Below, one piece after another: positions 1 through 6,113 of a stretch of DNA of 6,113 bases (position 1 is its first letter; each line of letters opens with the position of its first letter). Both the position numbers and the translations under genes were made by a program. The stretch is from positions 1 to 6,113 of the IMG/VR virus record IMGVR_UViG_2541047961_000012. One strand, 5' to 3'. The DNA comes from a virus (lineage: Duplodnaviria; Heunggongvirae; Uroviricota; Caudoviricetes). The notes under the pieces were generated by a model that saw only the letters and a program-made list of their open reading frames with translations, did not search any database and had not been told where the DNA came from.

Positions 1-252
1 CTGTTTTCTGGCGTCTCCTGCCAGTGTGATGGTTTTGTCCTGTTTTTCCTGTGCGTCCAGGCTTTTATTAATCAGGTTGCCCAGCGGCGTGGCGGAGAAC
101 GCCGCATCAGCCATTTCCTGGCGGCGCTCGTTCTCTACCCGGTAGGCATCCAGCCAGGAGGAAAGCGCGGATTCAGGAGCGGGGATCCCCGTTCCTTCAC
201 GCCCCACTGCGTGGCGCGGTTGTTGCCAGTCCCTGATGTACTCTGCCGTCAT
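1..252 (-). CDS. hypothetical protein, N-terminal 84 codons only (gene runs off the left edge)
   Basis: Hand translation of the minus strand: ATG at 252..250, open to position 1 with no stop (MTAEYIRDWQQPRHAVGREGTGIP...). It starts 6 nt after the TAA (261..259) of the upstream gene, with only a weak SD. Absent from the ORF track because it is truncated. No family recognised. Confidence 0.45.
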   Translation of the reverse strand, partial: MTAEYIRDWQQPRHAVGREGTGIPAPESALSSWLDAYRVENERRQEMADAAFSATPLGNLINKSLDAQEKQDKTITLAGDARKQ

Positions 253-258
253 AGTGAT

Positions 259-624
259 TTACTTCGTCATGCCATTCAGGGTGTCGCGGCAGACTGTAGC
301 CAGCCGCTGAATTTCCAGCACGGTGTCTTCTGTGTCGGCATGGCGATGTGTGATGCGGATGCTGTCGGCAATCACATCGACGATTGCAGAGGATGGGCGC
401 TGGTAAATGCCAATAACGGACGGGGTGCCGCCTTCAATGCGGTAAAGCCTGTAATTTCCCTCGTGGCTGTCAATCATGTAGCGGCCATCAATAACAATCT
501 TTCCGTCAGCGAGCTGCGGTACAGGCAGGGATTTCAGGTACATGTCATAACGGTCACGCACGCGAACGGCAAGATCACGCTCTGTGTTGAGCAGGTATTC
601 AAGAAAGTCGTTGGCGAGAATCAT
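259..624 (-). CDS. hypothetical protein (121 aa)
   Basis: ORF in track. SD AAGAGGA sits 9 nt upstream of the ATG at 624..622. Composition is protein-like, unlike the overlapping plus-strand frame, which is Cys/Arg-rich. No family recognised. Confidence 0.6.
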   Translation of the reverse strand: MILANDFLEYLLNTERDLAVRVRDRYDMYLKSLPVPQLADGKIVIDGRYMIDSHEGNYRLYRIEGGTPSVIGIYQRPSSAIVDVIADSIRITHRHADTEDTVLEIQRLATVCRDTLNGMTK

Positions 625-696
625 TGCGGCAATCCTCTTGTTACAGATGTGCGAAGGCCTCCCGCCGCAAGGTGCAGGAAAGGCCCGGAACAGGAA

Positions 697-927
697 TTAA
701 TGGAGTTTGTTTTGCTGCTGGATGAGATCCTGAAGAGACAGGAGGTCTTCCGCCAGATAGCTGAATACAGCGGCGCAGTAGTCGGCTGAAATAGTGTTGT
801 TGAGTCTGTGCAATGTGTTGGATTGCATGATAAAGGCGATGTGTGCAGCGCGGGTGAGTCTGCGATCGATTTCAGTCTGGATGTGACGACGCTCCGCGAT
901 AGTGCGGTGCTGTTTGCGGTTTGCCAT
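697..927 (-). CDS. hypothetical small basic protein (76 aa)
   Basis: ORF in track. SD AAGAGG sits 8 nt upstream of the ATG at 927..925. Arg-rich N-terminus (MANRKQHRTIAERRHIQ) could be nucleic-acid binding. No family recognised. Confidence 0.5.
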   Translation of the reverse strand: MANRKQHRTIAERRHIQTEIDRRLTRAAHIAFIMQSNTLHRLNNTISADYCAAVFSYLAEDLLSLQDLIQQQNKLH

Positions 928-1020
928 GGTGTGGCCTCTTTGTTGGTAAGTTTTGAATACTCACCATCCAGAGCTGCGAAACTGTGGGTGGCGAGACGTA
1001 CGAGGTTCGCAGTACCGGTC

Positions 1021-1056
1021 AACAAAGAAAACCCGGCCCGACCGAAGTCGGCCCCG
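1021..1056 (-). terminator. candidate intrinsic terminator (minus strand)
   Basis: Minus strand reads GGGGCCGAC-TTCG-GTCGGGCC followed by GGGTTTTCTTTGTT: a GC-rich stem with one mismatch, a UUCG tetraloop and a T-rich tail. Confidence 0.35.
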
Positions 1057-1106
1057 TACGCCCCACCATAATTCTGATGCGAAAAAATGTGCGGCAATGC
1101 GGTACG

Positions 1107-1234
1107 CACAAAAAAACCGCTGGCGCGGTTGTGCGCTTTGTTGATCAGCAGGCTGCGAAACCCGGCACCCGTTTTATGAGATGCAACGGAAATGTAACCT
1201 GACTGATTGCGGCATGGCAAGCGGTTTTTTTGTG
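1107..1234. repeat. 15-bp perfect inverted repeat pair flanking 98 bp (cacaaaaaaaccgct at 1107..1121; agcggtttttttgtg at 1220..1234)
   Basis: Exact reverse complements, checked base by base. Each arm carries an A7 or T7 tract. The left arm also forms a local hairpin (cgcacaa / ccgc-tggc-gcgg / ttgtgcg) that reads as stem plus T7 on the minus strand. Confidence 0.6.
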
Positions 1235-1247
1235 AGAACGGCATACT

Positions 1248-1292
1248 AAAAAAATCCTGATACTGCTCCGGCCAGCGATTTTCACTGGCCGG
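1248..1292 (-). terminator. candidate terminator of the SPFH operon
   Basis: Perfect 8-bp GC-rich stem (ccggccag 1268..1275 / ctggccgg 1285..1292) with a 9-nt loop, starting 6 nt after the TAA (1301..1299) of the SPFH gene. On the minus strand a T7 tract (1254..1248) follows, but 13 nt beyond the stem, so geometry is non-canonical. Confidence 0.4.
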
Positions 1293-1298
1293 GTTTAA

Positions 1299-2129
1299 TT
1301 ACTTCACCGGAACAAACGGAACAGCGGTGTTGCTGGTCATGTATTGCGGCAGCGTGCCGTTCCATTTGTTGATTGCTTCCAGCTCCATAACGCCGGGATT
1401 CTGGCGCAGAGCTTCACCGCGTAAACGAATGGCGTCGGCTTCAGCCTGGGCTTTTGTGCGAATGGCATCAGCCTGTCCGGCAGCTTCTGCGCGCAACATG
1501 TTGGCTTCTGCTTCGCGTTGCTTGACTTCCTGTTCGCGTTGCAGGGTTTTCTGGTTTGCCGTGACTTTGGCATTAATGCTGTCGATAACGGTTGACGGGT
1601 ACTCCGGCTTACCCACATATGAGAGGCTCATTACCTGAATACCGATGGGTGTCATTTCCTCCTGAATGTCTTTAAGAGCTGCATCCAGTAGTTCAGATTT
1701 CCCGCCGTCGATAAATTTGTCGGTGGTCATTTTGCTGGCCAGTCGGTTGAGTGCATCGGCGATCTTCTGGCGCAGGTCAGTGTCGGTAATGTCATCCACG
1801 CCTTTGCGGTAGGTCTGAAACACTGTAGTAACTTTGGATGGATCAACCTTGTAGGCCACACCGATGTGATAGCCGATGGTTGTGCCGTCACTCATCTGGA
1901 AGCTGAACGGCTCATCGTAGGTCTTCATTTGTTTGAAGGTCGGGAAGATGTAAACCTCGGTATTCCAGCCAGTCCAGTAGCGGCCAACGCCAACCACTTC
2001 GCCGACGCCTTTGTCGTCGCCCAGTTTATTTACCTTGATGCCCACATTACCTGGCTCAACGCGATCGCAACCAACCAGCAGGATGGCGGCAAAAAGCGGG
2101 ATAATCTGAAAGAGTTTGAGTTTCTTCAT
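1299..2129 (-). CDS. SPFH/Band-7 (stomatin/prohibitin/HflKC-like) domain lipoprotein, 276 aa
   Basis: ORF in track. SD GAGGAAA upstream. N-terminal lipoprotein signal MKKLKLFQIIPLFAAILLVGC with lipobox LVGC, and Asp at +2 (CD...). C-terminal Ala/Glu-rich helical region with AEADAIR-type repeats typical of SPFH proteins. The start ATG (2129..2127) overlaps the upstream stop as ATGA. Family call is from motifs only, no HMM run. Confidence 0.8.
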   Translation of the reverse strand: MKKLKLFQIIPLFAAILLVGCDRVEPGNVGIKVNKLGDDKGVGEVVGVGRYWTGWNTEVYIFPTFKQMKTYDEPFSFQMSDGTTIGYHIGVAYKVDPSKVTTVFQTYRKGVDDITDTDLRQKIADALNRLASKMTTDKFIDGGKSELLDAALKDIQEEMTPIGIQVMSLSYVGKPEYPSTVIDSINAKVTANQKTLQREQEVKQREAEANMLRAEAAGQADAIRTKAQAEADAIRLRGEALRQNPGVMELEAINKWNGTLPQYMTSNTAVPFVPVK

Positions 2130-2329
2130 TGTTTGATTTCCTCAATGTATTTACTGAAAAAGCGAACAACGCCTGCCGGGTACAGCAGGGCAATGAAAAT
2201 GCCCAGCAATACCAGGAAGGAACTGTCAGATGAAATCATTCGGGGGAGTAGTCCTGCATACAGGATGAGAGAAATGAGGACGCATACCAGCGCCCACATG
2301 TATGCGCGAAACCATGTCTTGTTGTTCAT
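2126..2329 (-). CDS. small two-helix membrane protein (67 aa)
   Basis: Start chosen at ATG 2329..2327 (MNNKTWFRAYMWALVCVLISLILYAGLLPRMISSDSSFLVLLGIFIALLYPAGVVRFFSKYIEEIKQ). SD AAGGG sits 7 nt upstream and overlaps the TAA of the preceding gene. Two hydrophobic segments with basic termini. The stop overlaps the SPFH start as ATGA. Confidence 0.65.
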   Translation of the reverse strand: MNNKTWFRAYMWALVCVLISLILYAGLLPRMISSDSSFLVLLGIFIALLYPAGVVRFFSKYIEEIKQ

Positions 2330-2339
2330 GTTGCGGCCC

Positions 2340-2639
2340 TTACTGGTTAAGGAAAAAATCGAAAACCTTGTCAATGCGTTGCAGCAGCTCTTGCTGTATT
2401 GCTTCCGGCGTTTCCGGTTCTCCTGGCGCCTCCAACGTCGCGCAGAAATCCTTGATTTCATGATGGAGTGTCAGGCGAATGGCAGGAGCTGTGGTTCTGG
2501 CGTGCTCCAGTTCATCCAGTAGCGCCAGCACGGCAGACGGCGAGAGCATTGCGCGAAACGCCAGTAATTTTTGATGCGTTGCCATTCGTTGCAGGTCAGT
2601 CGCCAGTTCGCGTAATTCCTGGTGGTTGATGGCGCTCAT
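2340..2639 (-). CDS. hypothetical acidic helical protein (99 aa)
   Basis: ORF in track. SD AAGGAAG sits 9 nt upstream. The start overlaps the upstream stop as ATGA (2639..2636). No family recognised. Confidence 0.6.
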   Translation of the reverse strand: MSAINHQELRELATDLQRMATHQKLLAFRAMLSPSAVLALLDELEHARTTAPAIRLTLHHEIKDFCATLEAPGEPETPEAIQQELLQRIDKVFDFFLNQ

Positions 2640-2881
2640 GCTCTGGCTTCCTTCAGTAGCTGGTTAAACATGTTGGTAAGTGGATTGCCGCCCCCGAACG
2701 GCATCGGGTTTATCTGGTAAGAAAAGCGACCGCCTGTTTTGCGCTCTTTTCTTATGACTGAACCGCTGCGCCAGAGTCGGCGTAACTCCGCATTAATGGC
2801 TGTGGTTGGGGTATTCAGTGCTGCGGCGATTTCTCCACCGCTACACCCCGGATTGGCGGCGATATAGTCCAGAATGGTCAT
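2636..2881 (-). CDS. small winged-helix DNA-binding protein, FaeA/PapI-like (81 aa)
   Basis: ORF in track. SD AGGAG sits 9 nt upstream. N-terminal ILDYIAANPGCSGGEIAAAL... resembles the FaeA/PapI-type small wHTH regulators as I recall them. The start overlaps the upstream stop as ATGA (2881..2878). Not verified by search. Confidence 0.55.
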   Translation of the reverse strand: MTILDYIAANPGCSGGEIAAALNTPTTAINAELRRLWRSGSVIRKERKTGGRFSYQINPMPFGGGNPLTNMFNQLLKEARA

Positions 2882-3081
2882 CTGCGTGACTCCTGTACCT
2901 GTCGGATAAGGTTCACCCGCACCACGTTGGTGGCGCAGAAGTAAGTGCCGTCAGTGAGATAGATGTGATGTGCATCCTGTTCTGAACGGTGTTTGTCGAT
3001 TGTGGTAATCAGGCGTTCGTCGACCTCGTATTCACGTCCTCTGGAAGTGAAACGAACGACAGGAAAATGCTTAATTGCCAT
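2878..3081 (-). CDS. hypothetical protein (67 aa), first gene of the SPFH operon
   Basis: ORF in track. Strong SD AAGGAGG sits 5 nt upstream of the ATG at 3081..3079. Preceded by an 86-bp non-coding gap. No family recognised. Confidence 0.55.
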   Translation of the reverse strand: MAIKHFPVVRFTSRGREYEVDERLITTIDKHRSEQDAHHIYLTDGTYFCATNVVRVNLIRQVQESRR

Positions 3082-3167
3082 TGCGCCTCCTTGGCGTGTG
3101 CGAATACCTCCGCGAATGCGGATTGTTTTTACATTTTCTTATTTAACCTGTGGTTTTATTTGCTCTG

Positions 3168-3281
3168 TTATTCGCCAGTGAAAAAGCGTTCAATCTTTTT
3201 TACTGAATGAATAATTCGCATAATCCCAATGGCGCAGACCACCGAAATAATCAGAACAAGCCATGAGATAAATATACTCAT
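3168..3281 (-). CDS. 37-aa hydrophobic micro-protein (MSIFISWLVLIISVVCAIGIMRIIHSVKKIERFFTGE), predicted single-pass membrane peptide
   Basis: Found by hand translation, too short for the ORF track. ATG 3281..3279 overlaps the TGA (3280..3278) of the upstream 80-aa gene as ATGA. A 20-residue hydrophobic helix is followed by a basic tail. Stop TAA at 3170..3168. Only a weak GGGA SD-like element. Confidence 0.4.
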   Translation of the reverse strand: MSIFISWLVLIISVVCAIGIMRIIHSVKKIERFFTGE

Positions 3282-3520
3282 GCGATATTTCCCAGCTTAT
3301 ACGGTTCAATATGTTCCCCGCATTCTGCGGCACAGATCAACTCGGAAAGTTCGTTAAGTGCATCCAGATCATCAGCGTAAAAAGCCACGTCATACAGACT
3401 CCGGATTGCCCTGGTCAATGAGTCACGGGCTGCACGTTCAGCATGAGCGCCTGATGCACTTAAGCGAAAATAAAAACGCTCAAGTGCTTTGTTAATGAGA
3501 GTTTTATATTCTTTGCCCAT
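3278..3520 (-). CDS. hypothetical protein (80 aa)
   Basis: ORF in track. SD AAGGG sits 7 nt upstream of the ATG at 3520..3518, 11 nt after the upstream stop. No family recognised. Confidence 0.55.
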   Translation of the reverse strand: MGKEYKTLINKALERFYFRLSASGAHAERAARDSLTRAIRSLYDVAFYADDLDALNELSELICAAECGEHIEPYKLGNIA

Positions 3521-3531
3521 CGCAACGCCCT

Positions 3532-3819
3532 TTAATCTGCTTTCTGAATTTCAGTTTCTGAATCCATACAAATAATTTCGATATAGGGTTCATCGCCATT
3601 AGCCGGGCGTGCCTTTTCAGCTTCACTAATGATTTCTCGTACGGTCTGGTACGGAAGTTCCACAAGCAGTCGCGTGCCGTTCAGATAAACGTAAGTGGCT
3701 TCGTTGGCTCCGTTTTTACCCGCCGGAGCCACTCCATCAATAGCGGATGCGCGTAATAACAGTTCACCGCGAAAATCAATAAAACGGATAAATACACCTT
3801 GTGCATGCTCTTTGGTCAT
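3532..3819 (-). CDS. hypothetical protein (95 aa)
   Basis: Track ORF 3532..3879 trimmed to the internal ATG at 3819..3817 (MTKEHAQGVFIRF...). That start has SD AGGTG 5 nt upstream and lies 10 nt after the upstream stop. The longer start at 3879 has no SD and would overlap the upstream gene by 50 nt. Confidence 0.55.
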   Translation of the reverse strand: MTKEHAQGVFIRFIDFRGELLLRASAIDGVAPAGKNGANEATYVYLNGTRLLVELPYQTVREIISEAEKARPANGDEPYIEIICMDSETEIQKAD

Positions 3820-3829
3820 AACGCACCTG

Positions 3830-4180
3830 TTATAAATCAGCCTGTTTAATAAAACTTTGCCCGCGAAGCAGACGATCAACCGTGCGAAGTGCTTCGTATA
3901 ATGTGAAATCCTGTCCGAACTGATTGTCGCCGCAGCTCAATGAAAAAATGCGGTTTCCGGTAAACGGATTGCGTGGGCATTTGTGGACCACGATCCCGGC
4001 TTTCTCAATCAGCCAGGTATGCTCGCCGATTTGTTTTACTGGGTAGCCATCCGGCGTTGCGTGTGTTTCGCTCAGGCTGTAGCGAGAGCTGCTACGTGAT
4101 GCGCTGGTAGCGAAACGGTTAGCATGGCGTTCCGCACCGTTGCGGAAGCGCTGCTGTGAAGAATTGCGCCGTTCCTTCAT
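3830..4180 (-). CDS. hypothetical protein (116 aa) with a basic Ser/Arg-rich N-terminal region
   Basis: ORF in track. SD GGAG sits about 9 nt upstream of the ATG at 4180..4178. First gene after cox. No family recognised. Confidence 0.55.
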   Translation of the reverse strand: MKERRNSSQQRFRNGAERHANRFATSASRSSSRYSLSETHATPDGYPVKQIGEHTWLIEKAGIVVHKCPRNPFTGNRIFSLSCGDNQFGQDFTLYEALRTVDRLLRGQSFIKQADL

Positions 4181-4217
4181 ATCAAAATACTCCGCCTAAA
4201 ATGAGTTATGGTTTGAG

Positions 4218-4643
4218 TTATGCTGCTTTACCGCTGATGTTTCTGTTTCGTCTGCCACTTGTTGGCTTAAACAAAAACAGACGGTTTTCCCAGTCGTGCC
4301 ATTCCTGAGGTGCGTTTTCGATGAGGCGATCGCATGCTTCATCCCACGCTTTTCTGTTGATGTAGAGTTCAGCGTTTCCGCCTGGTTTAAGAGGGTCCGC
4401 CATATACACCGCAGGTAGCTTTCCTGCTTTGGCCATGCTTACGATGGCGTCAACGGTCTTTCCGATATACATCGCAAATCCTTCTTTTGACAGGAGATGC
4501 GAGGGATTTTCTGAAAGTCGAATTTCTTCACGTTCACGTGCTTTGCGTCCTGTTTTTTGATACTCCCCCTCTGGCATTTCTGACAGGCGATCGCATCGTG
4601 TTCCGCAAAGTGACTCAGGCGCGTTTTGAGTGCTTTCTTGCAT
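4218..4643 (-). CDS. cox: Cox/Apl-like excisionase-regulator homolog with a roughly 50-aa N-terminal extension (141 aa)
   Basis: Divergent from the C-type repressor. Core FAMYIGKTVDAIVSMAKAGKLPAVYMADP resembles the P2 Cox HTH region as I recall it. Strong SD GGAGG sits 8 nt upstream of the ATG at 4643..4641; the internal Met23 has no SD. Confidence 0.7.
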   Translation of the reverse strand: MQESTQNAPESLCGTRCDRLSEMPEGEYQKTGRKAREREEIRLSENPSHLLSKEGFAMYIGKTVDAIVSMAKAGKLPAVYMADPLKPGGNAELYINRKAWDEACDRLIENAPQEWHDWENRLFLFKPTSGRRNRNISGKAA

Positions 4644-4751
4644 CTGATATCCTCCGCTATTGGTGCTTTCTTCTAACTAGCACCATTTAGAACTAGTTAG
4701 CGCAATTCGTTGTGTGTTAATTGATGTATAAACTAAGTGAGTTAACTTACT
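4644..4751. promoter_or_regulatory. C/cox divergent switch region with operator-like dyads
   Basis: 108-bp AT-rich gap between divergent start codons. Inverted repeat CTAACTAG (4673..4680) / CTAGTTAG (4693..4700) with a 12-bp spacer. AACTAG direct repeats at 4675 and 4691. Dyad TGGTGC (4661..4666) / GCACCA (4680..4685). TATAAA at 4727..4732 preceded by TG. Exact promoter hexamers could not be assigned. Confidence 0.55.
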
Positions 4752-5051
4752 ATGTCAACTACCGTAGCTATGAAAATTCGCATCATGCGGAAGTCAGAAA
4801 TGCTTACACAAGAAAAAATGGCAGAGATTACTGGGCTTACTCTTGCTGCATTAAGGCAATATGAGCAAGGACGAAATGAACCCAACCTTGAGTCAACAAA
4901 AAAGCTTCTGAAAGCCCCCATGTTCCGTAAGTACCGCGACTGGTTTTTGTTTGATGAAGTTGAACCCAAGGCCGGGCAGGTTGTACCGGCTCTCGCACAC
5001 ATTGGGCAAGGCGAAGCGGAATCATCCCGCTCCGGCAAGAAGACTGGTTAA
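4752..5051 (+). CDS. C: P2 C-type immunity repressor (99 aa)
   Basis: ORF in track. Same length as P2 C, and the sequence (MSTTVAMKIRIMRKSEML...VPALAHIGQ...SGKKTG) closely resembles P2 C as I recall it, with an HTH near the N-terminus. Sits directly upstream of int on the same strand, as in P2. Confidence 0.85.
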   Translation: MSTTVAMKIRIMRKSEMLTQEKMAEITGLTLAALRQYEQGRNEPNLESTKKLLKAPMFRKYRDWFLFDEVEPKAGQVVPALAHIGQGEAESSRSGKKTG

Positions 5052-5117
5052 CGGTTCACCAGGCATTTATTTCCCAGAGCTGTGATCAAGATGATGTTTT
5101 CATTGGAGGGCTTCCTT

Positions 5118-6113
5118 ATGTCGATTAAGAAGCTCGCTAATGGCAAATTCTGTGTGGACGTGCGGCCAGCTGGATCAGAAGGAAAAAGATTCAGGCGGCG
5201 ATTTGATACTCGTGGTGAGGCTGTTTTGTATGAGCGTCATGTATTGCAGCATTACCACGACAAAGACTGGGTTGATAAGCCAACAGAACGGCGCTCGCTG
5301 AGGGAGTTGCTGGATTGTTGGTGGCTATACCACGGGAAAAATCATCCTTACGGTGCGATGGAGCGAGTGCGTATTTCTGCGGTCATTAGTGATCTTGAAA
5401 GTATTAATGTTACACGCAGCGACCAACTTACTCGTAAGAACATAATTAATTATCGGTTATTGTTGCTTAACCGCGGAATAAAACAATCCACGGTTAATCG
5501 TTATTGCGCAATGATGAGTGGTTTCTTCACAAAACTAATTGACGCAGAGGAATATTCTGGGGCTAATCCGTTTCATGATGTGAAAAAACTTAATATCAAA
5601 CAGCCTGAAATGGCTTATTTGTATCATGAGGATATTCCACGATTACTGGAGTTGTTATCTGGTGATGAATTAAAAGCTGTCTTGTTGTGTCTGGCAACAG
5701 GTGGAAGATGGAGTGAGGTTGCAAATATCAAGGGGGAGCATGTTATTAGCGGCAAAGTCATTTTTATGGAAACCAAAAATGGGAAGCGTCGCGTTATACC
5801 TATATCGTCAGAACTGGAGTGCATGATTAAAACAAAGGCCACTGGTCGTTTAATTTATCCAAGTTATGCCGCTGTCAGAGCTGCTATCAGAAAGGTGAGG
5901 CCCGATCTTCCTGAAGGGCAGTCGATACATGTTTTACGGCATACCTTTGCCACTCACTTCATGATTAATGGTGGGAATATCATCACTTTGCAGAGAATAC
6001 TTGGGCATAGCACTATTCAGCAGACGATGACTTATGCCCATTTTGCACCGGATTATCTGCAGGATGCTGTGCGCTTTAATCCTGTGGCTGAGTTGTCCAG
6101 ATATTGCCCATAA
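5118..6113 (+). CDS. int: tyrosine site-specific integrase, P2 Int-like (331 aa)
   Basis: Start moved from the track's 5082 to the ATG at 5118, which has SD GGAGGG 7 nt upstream and gives MSIKKLANGKFCVDVRP..., like the P2 Int N-terminus. C-terminal catalytic signature HVLRHTFATHF...GHSTIQQTMTYAH (H-x-x-R box and Tyr nucleophile). The stop TAA is the last 3 nt of the window. Confidence 0.9.
   Translation: MSIKKLANGKFCVDVRPAGSEGKRFRRRFDTRGEAVLYERHVLQHYHDKDWVDKPTERRSLRELLDCWWLYHGKNHPYGAMERVRISAVISDLESINVTRSDQLTRKNIINYRLLLLNRGIKQSTVNRYCAMMSGFFTKLIDAEEYSGANPFHDVKKLNIKQPEMAYLYHEDIPRLLELLSGDELKAVLLCLATGGRWSEVANIKGEHVISGKVIFMETKNGKRRVIPISSELECMIKTKATGRLIYPSYAAVRAAIRKVRPDLPEGQSIHVLRHTFATHFMINGGNIITLQRILGHSTIQQTMTYAHFAPDYLQDAVRFNPVAELSRYCP

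Follow-up and report, generated by a model that had tools for sequence, protein, structure and literature searches.

The left end of a P88-type prophage of the P2 family (genus Xuanwuvirus, Peduoviridae), present as positions 1 to 6,113 of the virus record IMGVR_UViG_2541047961_000012 and analysed here over its full length of 6,113 nucleotides (nt; hereafter the window), carries a micro-open reading frame (micro-ORF) that we consider, with high confidence, to be a real selected gene encoding a membrane micro-protein. The 37-amino acid (aa) ORF claimed in the initial annotation is indeed present and is located on the minus strand: its coding sequence occupies positions 3168..3281 (37 codons plus TAA), with the ATG at 3281-3279 and the TAA stop at 3170-3168, and its product is MSIFISWLVLIISVVCAIGIMRIIHSVKKIERFFTGE. 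The best-supported picture is that of a bitopic micro-protein of the inner membrane, made early in lytic growth, its synthesis being linked to that of the protein encoded immediately upstream, an 80-aa protein of the DUF4754 family. We give this overall explanation a probability of about 0.45.

Conservation and selection

The window contains 89 ORFs of at least 25 aa and therefore the size and the hydrophobicity of the micro-ORF are within chance. Hence, the case for a gene rests on comparison with relatives. We gathered 245 related loci through relatives of DUF4754, through a profile of the micro-protein or through a divergent member of the family. In all of them, the ORF starts within a 4-nt overlap with the upstream TGA (244 ATG starts and one GTG). 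Loss of the reading frame in related sequences, which the initial annotation regarded as evidence against a gene, is thus decisively contradicted, the frame being kept in 245/245 loci. Among the 157 unique contexts, the product is 37 aa long in 135, 41 aa in 11, 45 aa in nine and 30 aa in two.

The pooled pairwise ratio of non-synonymous to synonymous polymorphism (pN/pS), calculated over codons 2-33, is 0.26 in the frame of the micro-ORF versus 1.39 and 1.48 in the two other sense frames; the value for DUF4754 is 0.21. Column entropy is 0.13, 0.06 and 0.33 at the three successive codon positions, the excess at the third one being significant (permutation p=0.00014). One antisense frame also has a low pN/pS (0.34) because its wobble positions are shared with the micro-ORF. 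An ORF of the opposite strand (3229-3357, plus strand) was considered as the selected frame and rejected, since it overlaps only 17 codons of the micro-ORF and enters DUF4754 out of frame; therefore, it does not explain selection over the full length. Judging from these comparisons, the micro-ORF is a protein-coding gene under purifying selection.

Furthermore, the micro-peptide remains 52-91% identical in loci where DUF4754 drops to 28-44%. The most distant members of the family, which share 47-57% identity with the peptide of the window, are still located directly 3' of an 80-aa DUF4754-type gene (28-44% identity) and keep the ATGA overlap. Therefore, the micro-protein is the more constrained of the two. 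Invariant or near-invariant positions (M1, S6, W7, L10, I11, A17, G19, I20, R22, I23, I24, K28, I30, E31 and F34) stand beside positions that vary freely (5, 15, 25, 26, 29 and 32). Within the transmembrane (TM) segment, conservation has no significant helical periodicity (p=0.075 at 102.9 degrees and 0.34 at 100 degrees); a conserved helical face is thus suggestive only and we do not claim it. The 45-aa and 30-aa variants keep residues 1-28 and result from frameshifts in runs of five to seven A or of five T within the tail. In the window, these frameshift-prone homopolymers correspond to an A6 run at 3196..3201 (codons 27-29) and a T5 run at 3181-3185, both on the minus strand. These tail frameshifts, which are independent and found in 11 of the 157 contexts, may be true alleles, decaying copies or sequencing errors.

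Distribution and annotation

The initial annotation presented the ORF as unannotated, which is wrong: it is labelled 'membrane protein' in phage P88 (gp07), 'hypothetical protein' by the Prokaryotic Genome Annotation Pipeline (PGAP) of RefSeq and 'Prophage membrane protein' in UniRef. The PGAP label is borne by the copy of the closest E. coli genome and by every full-length E. coli hit in a spread-out sample; a few phage records (H44 and H48) leave the micro-ORF without annotation. Its product is 97% identical to P88 gp07 over 37 aa (tblastn, E=4e-15). P88 gp07 (YP_009113050.1), the proteins of the WP_000021656.1 type and the UniRef entries correspond to the same gene, with the same ATGA overlap with DUF4754 and the same place in the cox-to-gpA operon; nothing structural differs between them, and their annotations are automatic.

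The exact 37-aa sequence was found on 998 contigs, some of which label it 'Prophage membrane protein', and its cluster has 183 members. The 161-nt locus is carried by 1393 of 5426 complete E. coli genomes (~26%), and also by 14 phage records and eight records labelled as plasmids. When 1.84 billion representative proteins were searched exhaustively with HMMER, only nine clusters were recovered. A search of 5.8 billion sequences with a profile built on the 41-aa relatives returned 155 clusters, nearly all from Escherichia (E. coli, E. albertii and E. fergusonii) and all 'hypothetical'; cluster members are also labelled Shigella, Salmonella or E. marmotae. The micro-protein has no match in Pfam, PHROG, NCBIfam, PADLOC or the PDB sequences, and the locus has none in Rfam. 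The family is thus narrow and has not been described as such; the gene is already catalogued and has never been studied. It belongs to a kind that is already known, i.e. the small phage membrane proteins encoded by early operons.

Predicted membrane protein

The micro-protein has a grand average of hydropathy of 1.32. Its best 19-residue Kyte-Doolittle window (mean 2.81) corresponds to codons 3-21 (3219..3275, minus strand; IFISWLVLIISVVCAIGIM), which are predicted to form a TM helix. Codons 22-37 (3171..3218, minus strand; RIIHSVKKIERFFTGE) would constitute an amphipathic (hydrophobic moment 0.6-0.84), net-basic (four K/R versus two D/E) tail, predicted to be cytoplasmic. AlphaFold2, run with 42 sequences of the family, models residues 2-34 as a single continuous helix with a predicted local distance difference test score (pLDDT) of 88. 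The hydropathy peak, the tail charge and this helix agree with the initial annotation, which had described one TM helix followed by a basic tail. The residues ahead of the hydrophobic core are all uncharged, and the C-terminus of the 41-aa relatives is KRRK, KRHK or KHHK. Following the positive-inside rule, the uncharged N-terminus and these basic ends lead us to predict that the topology is probably N-out/C-in.

Three other candidate interpretations of the peptide were rejected. A lipoprotein or a cleavable signal peptide does not fit, since the conservation of C16 is limited to 76%, with M, F, Y and S as alternatives, and since no K/R precedes the core. The motif by which proteins bind the beta clamp is QL[SD]LF; the IESLF of the micro-protein family lacks the key Gln and the 37-aa form has IERFF. 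Lastly, the tail sequence IMRIIHSVKK was compared with the C-terminus of the Fil protein of phage 186 (IIRIVHFVIK): the hhalign probability is 0.4% and BLASTP gives no alignment.

Junction with DUF4754 and probable translational coupling

The ATG of the micro-ORF and the TGA stop of the 80-aa gene have 4 nt in common (3278..3281, minus strand), in agreement with the ATGA overlap reported in the initial annotation. This -4 junction is the presumed site of termination-reinitiation. The upstream TGA overlaps the start in 243/243 loci scored, to which can be added L149, where the junction is GTGA, and L221. A weak Shine-Dalgarno (SD)-like sequence, UGGGAAA, is located in the last codons of DUF4754 (3288..3294, minus strand). 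The anti-SD duplex predicted for its UGGGA, about 9 nt upstream of the start, has an energy of -4.6 kcal/mol versus -4.8 kcal/mol for DUF4754 and -11.4 kcal/mol for the next gene; the SD is therefore weak, as had been noted. Among relatives, the SD is GGAG, GGAGG or AGGAGG at -8 to -14, also within the last DUF4754 codons.

Overlaps of the -4 type mediate a tight termination-reinitiation coupling that is lost over ~20 nt, and subunits of heteromeric complexes are over-represented among -4 overlapping pairs (PMC6728339; PMC10666635). The DUF4754/micro-ORF junction resembles these coupled pairs by its invariant 4-nt overlap and, in the window, by its weak internal SD. It differs from them by the strong SDs of its relatives, in which initiation may be partly independent; coupling in the prophage of the window is thus presumed. 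On the basis of the overlap, DUF4754 and the micro-ORF are likely to be translationally coupled, and direct initiation probably supplements this coupling in relatives because of their strong SDs. The ATGA -4 junction is also the default architecture of the operon. Indeed, four such overlaps are found on the minus strand (3278-3281, 2878-2881, 2636-2639 and 2126-2129), each preceded at 9-12 nt by a purine run of the GGA type. The initiation context of the micro-ORF (GGGA-N9-ATGA) is similar to that of three accepted junctions of the operon, i.e. those between the 67-aa protein and MarR, MarR and Ead, and the membrane protein and SPFH. Hence, the earlier suggestion that expression depends on coupling can be retained only in part: the weak SD fits it, whereas the generality of the ATGA junction in the operon and the good SDs of relatives do not.

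The DUF4754 protein

The DUF4754 gene (PF15946; Pfam E=2.8e-54 over the full length) is located at 3278..3520 on the minus strand and encodes a helical protein of 80 aa. It always lies directly upstream of the micro-ORF, whether the loci are retrieved by DUF4754 or by the micro-protein, and it was found only in the same prophages as the micro-ORF. AlphaFold2 predicts helices at residues 4-48 and 52-66 (pLDDT 91, predicted template modelling score 0.79). This predicted fold has no match with E<=0.001 in PDB or BFVD; all that it recovers there are helical bundles of a generic kind (E>0.3).

Some proteins assigned to DUF4754 in databases are 103-128 aa long; they were considered as natural fusions with the micro-protein and rejected: they are frameshifted calls, mostly from read-level assemblies, in which translation continues into the region of the micro-ORF or into the alternative frame of that region (P0001, P0004, P0005, P0010, P0016, P0017, P0022, P0033, P0036, P0037, P0040 and P0045). 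A DUF4754 search of genome contigs gave two loci, one of which is labelled Vagococcus. This locus (L003) lies on a 226-kb contig of Vagococcus sp. WN89Y (NZ_JBQPOM010000071.1) that carries this prophage segment, with a DUF4754 98% identical to that of the window; this Gram-positive assembly is likely contaminated or mislabelled. In E. coli O111:H- 110512 (NZ_AP019761.1, L248), a degraded remnant was found in which a deletion fuses the end of DUF4754 to a truncated gpA, the micro-ORF and all that lies between it and gpA being lost.

A conserved hairpin downstream of the micro-ORF

A hairpin (UCCGC-N4-GCGGA followed by GG) is located at 3107..3122 on the minus strand, 45 nt 3' of the stop of the micro-ORF. 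The exact 5-bp stem is found in 217 of ~242 loci, usually 45 nt past the stop, and is kept in the most divergent relatives; L165-L170 and L245 are among the loci that carry the hairpin. In 35 distinct sequences, 98.9% of the cells are paired versus 36-62% in shifted registers, and two pairs show compensatory changes from C-G to U-A; since these sequences were chosen with a purine/pyrimidine-tolerant pattern, this count leans slightly towards structure. Fifteen loci carry single-step variants (UCCGU..AUGGA or UCCGU..ACGGG) that give a G.U pair on the sense strand and an A.C mismatch on the other one. As these variants fit the sense strand only, the element would be an RNA structure of the early transcript and not a DNA palindrome or a terminator of antisense transcription, although the plus strand is flagged as terminator-like.

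The hairpin forms in both the minimum free energy and the centroid structures. The genes located 3' of it differ between relatives, and it therefore marks a module boundary, where the conserved block that runs from cox to the micro-ORF gives way to a variable one. In the P2 record, orf78 and B are followed by a 'putative rho-independent terminator'. In that of phage 186, fil (a division inhibitor) and dhr (an inhibitor of host replication) are followed by tR1, which is annotated as anti-terminated in early lytic development. DUF4754 and the micro-ORF resemble these pairs in that they are small, overlap and close the promoter-proximal early block, ahead of a hairpin. We thus regard the hairpin as a positional analogue of the P2 post-B terminator and of 186 tR1, from which it differs by the lack of a U-tract. 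Candidate roles are a pause, a weak terminator, a processing site or the protection of an RNA end. One locus (L232) has no hairpin and carries instead a second small hydrophobic ORF (MKNVKAILTIATVWLIFQVCALIWLALKIWG) directly after the micro-ORF.

Proposed role of the micro-protein

The promoter-proximal block of the C-repressed early lytic operon (cox, DUF4761, phrog_3800, DUF4754, micro-ORF and hairpin) has the micro-ORF as its final cistron. Given this location, synthesis of the micro-protein would have to await infection or induction. In the proposed mechanism, the following would then take place. Ribosomes that end at the UGA of DUF4754 would probably reinitiate at the overlapping AUG with the help of the weak SD, so that the output of the micro-protein would be tied to that of DUF4754. 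Residues 3-21 would span the inner membrane, leaving about two residues outside and the amphipathic, net-basic tail in the cytoplasm. The micro-protein would be the membrane-embedded half of a two-protein module with DUF4754, and this module may act on a process of the host inner membrane early in lytic growth, as a non-essential accessory of host takeover and not as a killing toxin.

That the micro-protein is the membrane partner in a DUF4754 complex is a tentative proposal, to which we give slightly less than an even chance. The strict co-occurrence of the two genes, their invariant overlap and the enrichment of -4 pairs among complexes argue for it. The early host-takeover slot is suggested by analogy with phage 186, where fil and dhr precede tR1, the hairpin being at an equivalent place in the prophage of the window. 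Among the possibilities listed in the initial annotation, a small phage membrane regulator or a membrane anchor is the most plausible class. AcrZ, MgrB, MgtS, SidA of Caulobacter and gp56 of SPO1 are small bitopic regulators of membrane proteins. The micro-protein is similar to them in size, in its single TM helix, in its short cytoplasmic tail and in the conserved residues of its helix, and we think that it may work like regulators of the AcrZ/MgrB/SidA type, which constitute a functional class and not a homology family. Unlike them, it is phage-encoded and predicted to be coupled to a soluble helical protein, and it has no sequence relationship with any of them.

Several points weigh against a DUF4754 partnership. 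The predicted fold of DUF4754 gives no functional clue, and neither DUF4754 nor the micro-protein is mentioned in the papers and supplements searched, which hold no functional data on them. Mosaic pairs exist in which identity to the window is 44% for DUF4754 and 91% for the micro-protein (L161) or 82% and 64%, respectively (L163); the two genes therefore recombine independently and are not tightly co-adapted. Since ATGA is the default junction of the operon and also joins apparently unrelated genes, the overlap alone is no proof of a physical partnership. Judging from the tail variants, the protein may do without its last ~9 residues, or else some copies may be in decay. Lastly, the stronger constraint on the micro-protein than on DUF4754 is no less compatible with a conserved host target than with a phage partner.

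This last point leads to the alternative of a micro-protein that acts on its own, in the manner of SidA, AcrZ, MgrB or SPO1 gp56: its conserved TM helix and tail would bind and modulate a conserved inner-membrane protein of E. coli (divisome, transporter or sensor), and DUF4754 would only supply ribosomes. We hold it to be possible, if somewhat unlikely. A conservation far above that of DUF4754 is expected with a slowly evolving host partner, and invariant residues (S6/W7, A17/G19, R22 and K28/I30/E31/F34) lie beside freely varying ones. The recombination between DUF4754 and micro-protein lineages, the default nature of the ATGA junction and a position analogous to that of 186 fil/dhr point in the same direction. 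However, functional independence would leave the strict adjacency to DUF4754 (245/245) unexplained, the conservation shows no significant periodicity (p=0.075 and 0.34), and no homology to known small regulators was detected in Pfam, PHROG, NCBIfam or the PDB sequences. Of the two 186 proteins, Fil has no detectable similarity to the micro-protein and Dhr lacks a TM segment. A protein that excludes superinfecting phages, by blocking DNA entry or by abortive infection, is quite improbable. Small phage inner-membrane proteins, such as T4 Imm and HK97 gp15, often exclude superinfection, the operon also encodes an SPFH lipoprotein with a small membrane partner, and a locus carried by ~26% of complete E. 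coli genomes is very common. Nevertheless, the gene is not a moron with its own promoter but lies within a repressor-controlled early lytic operon, downstream of cox: promoter-like sites just upstream are within chance (one found versus 1.6 expected) and the one found lies inside DUF4754. In addition, neither the micro-protein nor its neighbours match PADLOC, and the locus is outside the P2 defence hotspots, which are tin/old and Z/fun (the location of tin being taken from the P2 record).

The initial annotation had also considered a toxic effector, mentioning type I toxins; another possibility of this kind is a protein pair in which the micro-protein would be the toxin and DUF4754 the upstream coupled antitoxin. 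We find a toxic effector of either kind very improbable. Fst, Ldr and TisB-type toxins consist of ~20 hydrophobic residues and a charged tail, and type II pairs typically have the antitoxin upstream, the toxin downstream and an ATGA overlap. The micro-protein and its gene show these traits. A size below 50 aa, a single hydrophobic helix and a charged C-terminal part make the micro-protein similar to type I toxins (Hok/Gef, Ldr, TisB, Fst and Ibs), and it would likely be harmful if over-produced. However, only one of the four testable defining features of a type I toxin, a small hydrophobic membrane peptide, is found. A consensus scan detected no promoter-like site on the plus strand in 2800-3700, an interval where an atypical promoter could escape it. 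No Rfam family was found at the locus (E<=1), although the scan works on this sequence since it readily recovered C4 and isrK elsewhere in the window. No model of Hok/Gef, Ldr, TisB, Ibs, ShoB, Fst or other toxins matches in Pfam or NCBIfam (E<=0.1). The micro-ORF is not an autonomous unit but an internal cistron, predicted to be coupled within a phage operon, with an AUG that shares nucleotides with the upstream stop in 245/245 loci; in all relatives, the locus is found in the interval from cox to the replication genes, and no relative carries it on a separate module of the addiction type. The type I toxin reading is thus not supported, and, regarding a protein pair, DUF4754 has no match to a DNA-binding or antitoxin-like fold. 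It is barely credible that no functional product is made, the ORF being a by-product or its translation alone being of importance, for instance to carry ribosomes towards the hairpin. The abundance of chance ORFs (89 of at least 25 aa in the window), the conserved RNA hairpin 45 nt downstream and the tolerance of the tail to frameshifts would fit, but purifying selection at the amino acid level equals in strength that on the flanking gene, DUF4754 is less conserved than the peptide, and 45 nt between stop and hairpin is too far for direct ribosome occlusion.

Beside the preferred picture of a membrane partner of DUF4754, one variant deserves mention, which we consider unlikely: the micro-protein, and not DUF4754, would be the effector of the two-gene module and would bind, through its nearly invariant helix and tail, one specific machine of the host inner membrane, DUF4754 delivering or gating the micro-protein. 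By analogy with the 186 fil/dhr slot, this machine could be, for example, a component of the divisome or one associated with replication. If true, this would define a new family of phage effectors, namely membrane micro-proteins that each have a dedicated soluble partner to which they are translationally coupled. The small membrane proteins of phages form a recognised class, most members of which are uncharacterised. The present one is unusually tractable owing to its presence in ~26% of complete E. coli genomes, a constraint above that of its neighbours, a fixed partner gene, a host-takeover slot and a well-understood phage family. If its target were identified, one of the most frequent 'hypothetical' genes of E. 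coli prophages would be accounted for.

Genomic context

The minus-strand operon successively encodes Cox (PF10743), DUF4761, phrog_3800, DUF4754, the micro-protein, phrog_3459, a MarR-type winged helix-turn-helix protein and an Ead/Ea22-like protein. It continues with a 67-aa membrane protein, an SPFH lipoprotein and further genes, the gene of the gpA replication endonuclease being just outside the window. Two plus-strand genes face this early operon, encoding a C-type repressor of 99 aa (4752-5051) and an integrase (5082 to the end of the window). The cistron that follows the micro-ORF (2878..3081, minus strand) encodes the 67-aa phrog_3459 protein; it has its own strong SD (AAGGAGG at 3086-3092, -11.4 kcal/mol) and is uncoupled from the micro-ORF. 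The gene found at the phrog_3459 position varies between related loci. At the divergent locus L245, the order DUF4761-DUF4754-micro-ORF is kept.

Further downstream on the minus strand, the two-TM membrane protein of 67 aa (phrog_1130; 2126-2329) overlaps by an ATGA the gene of the SPFH/Band-7 lipoprotein (phrog_200, 276 aa; 1299-2129), which shows weak similarity to HflK/C. This pair resembles an NfeD/SPFH pair located in a phage early operon, and it has no match in PADLOC. Strong Rfam matches on the same strand correspond to a C4 antisense RNA (984-1073; 77.8 bits, E=1.6e-14) and to the Hfq-binding RNA isrK (1110-1184; 66.4 bits, E=5.3e-13). Just downstream of them lies a 76-aa ORF (697-927, minus strand), the P88 counterpart of which is annotated as 'derepression protein'. 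Together, the C4/isrK matches and this ORF look like an RNA-controlled anti-repressor module of the P1 ImmI or Gifsy-1 IsrK type, carried here by a prophage of the P2 family.

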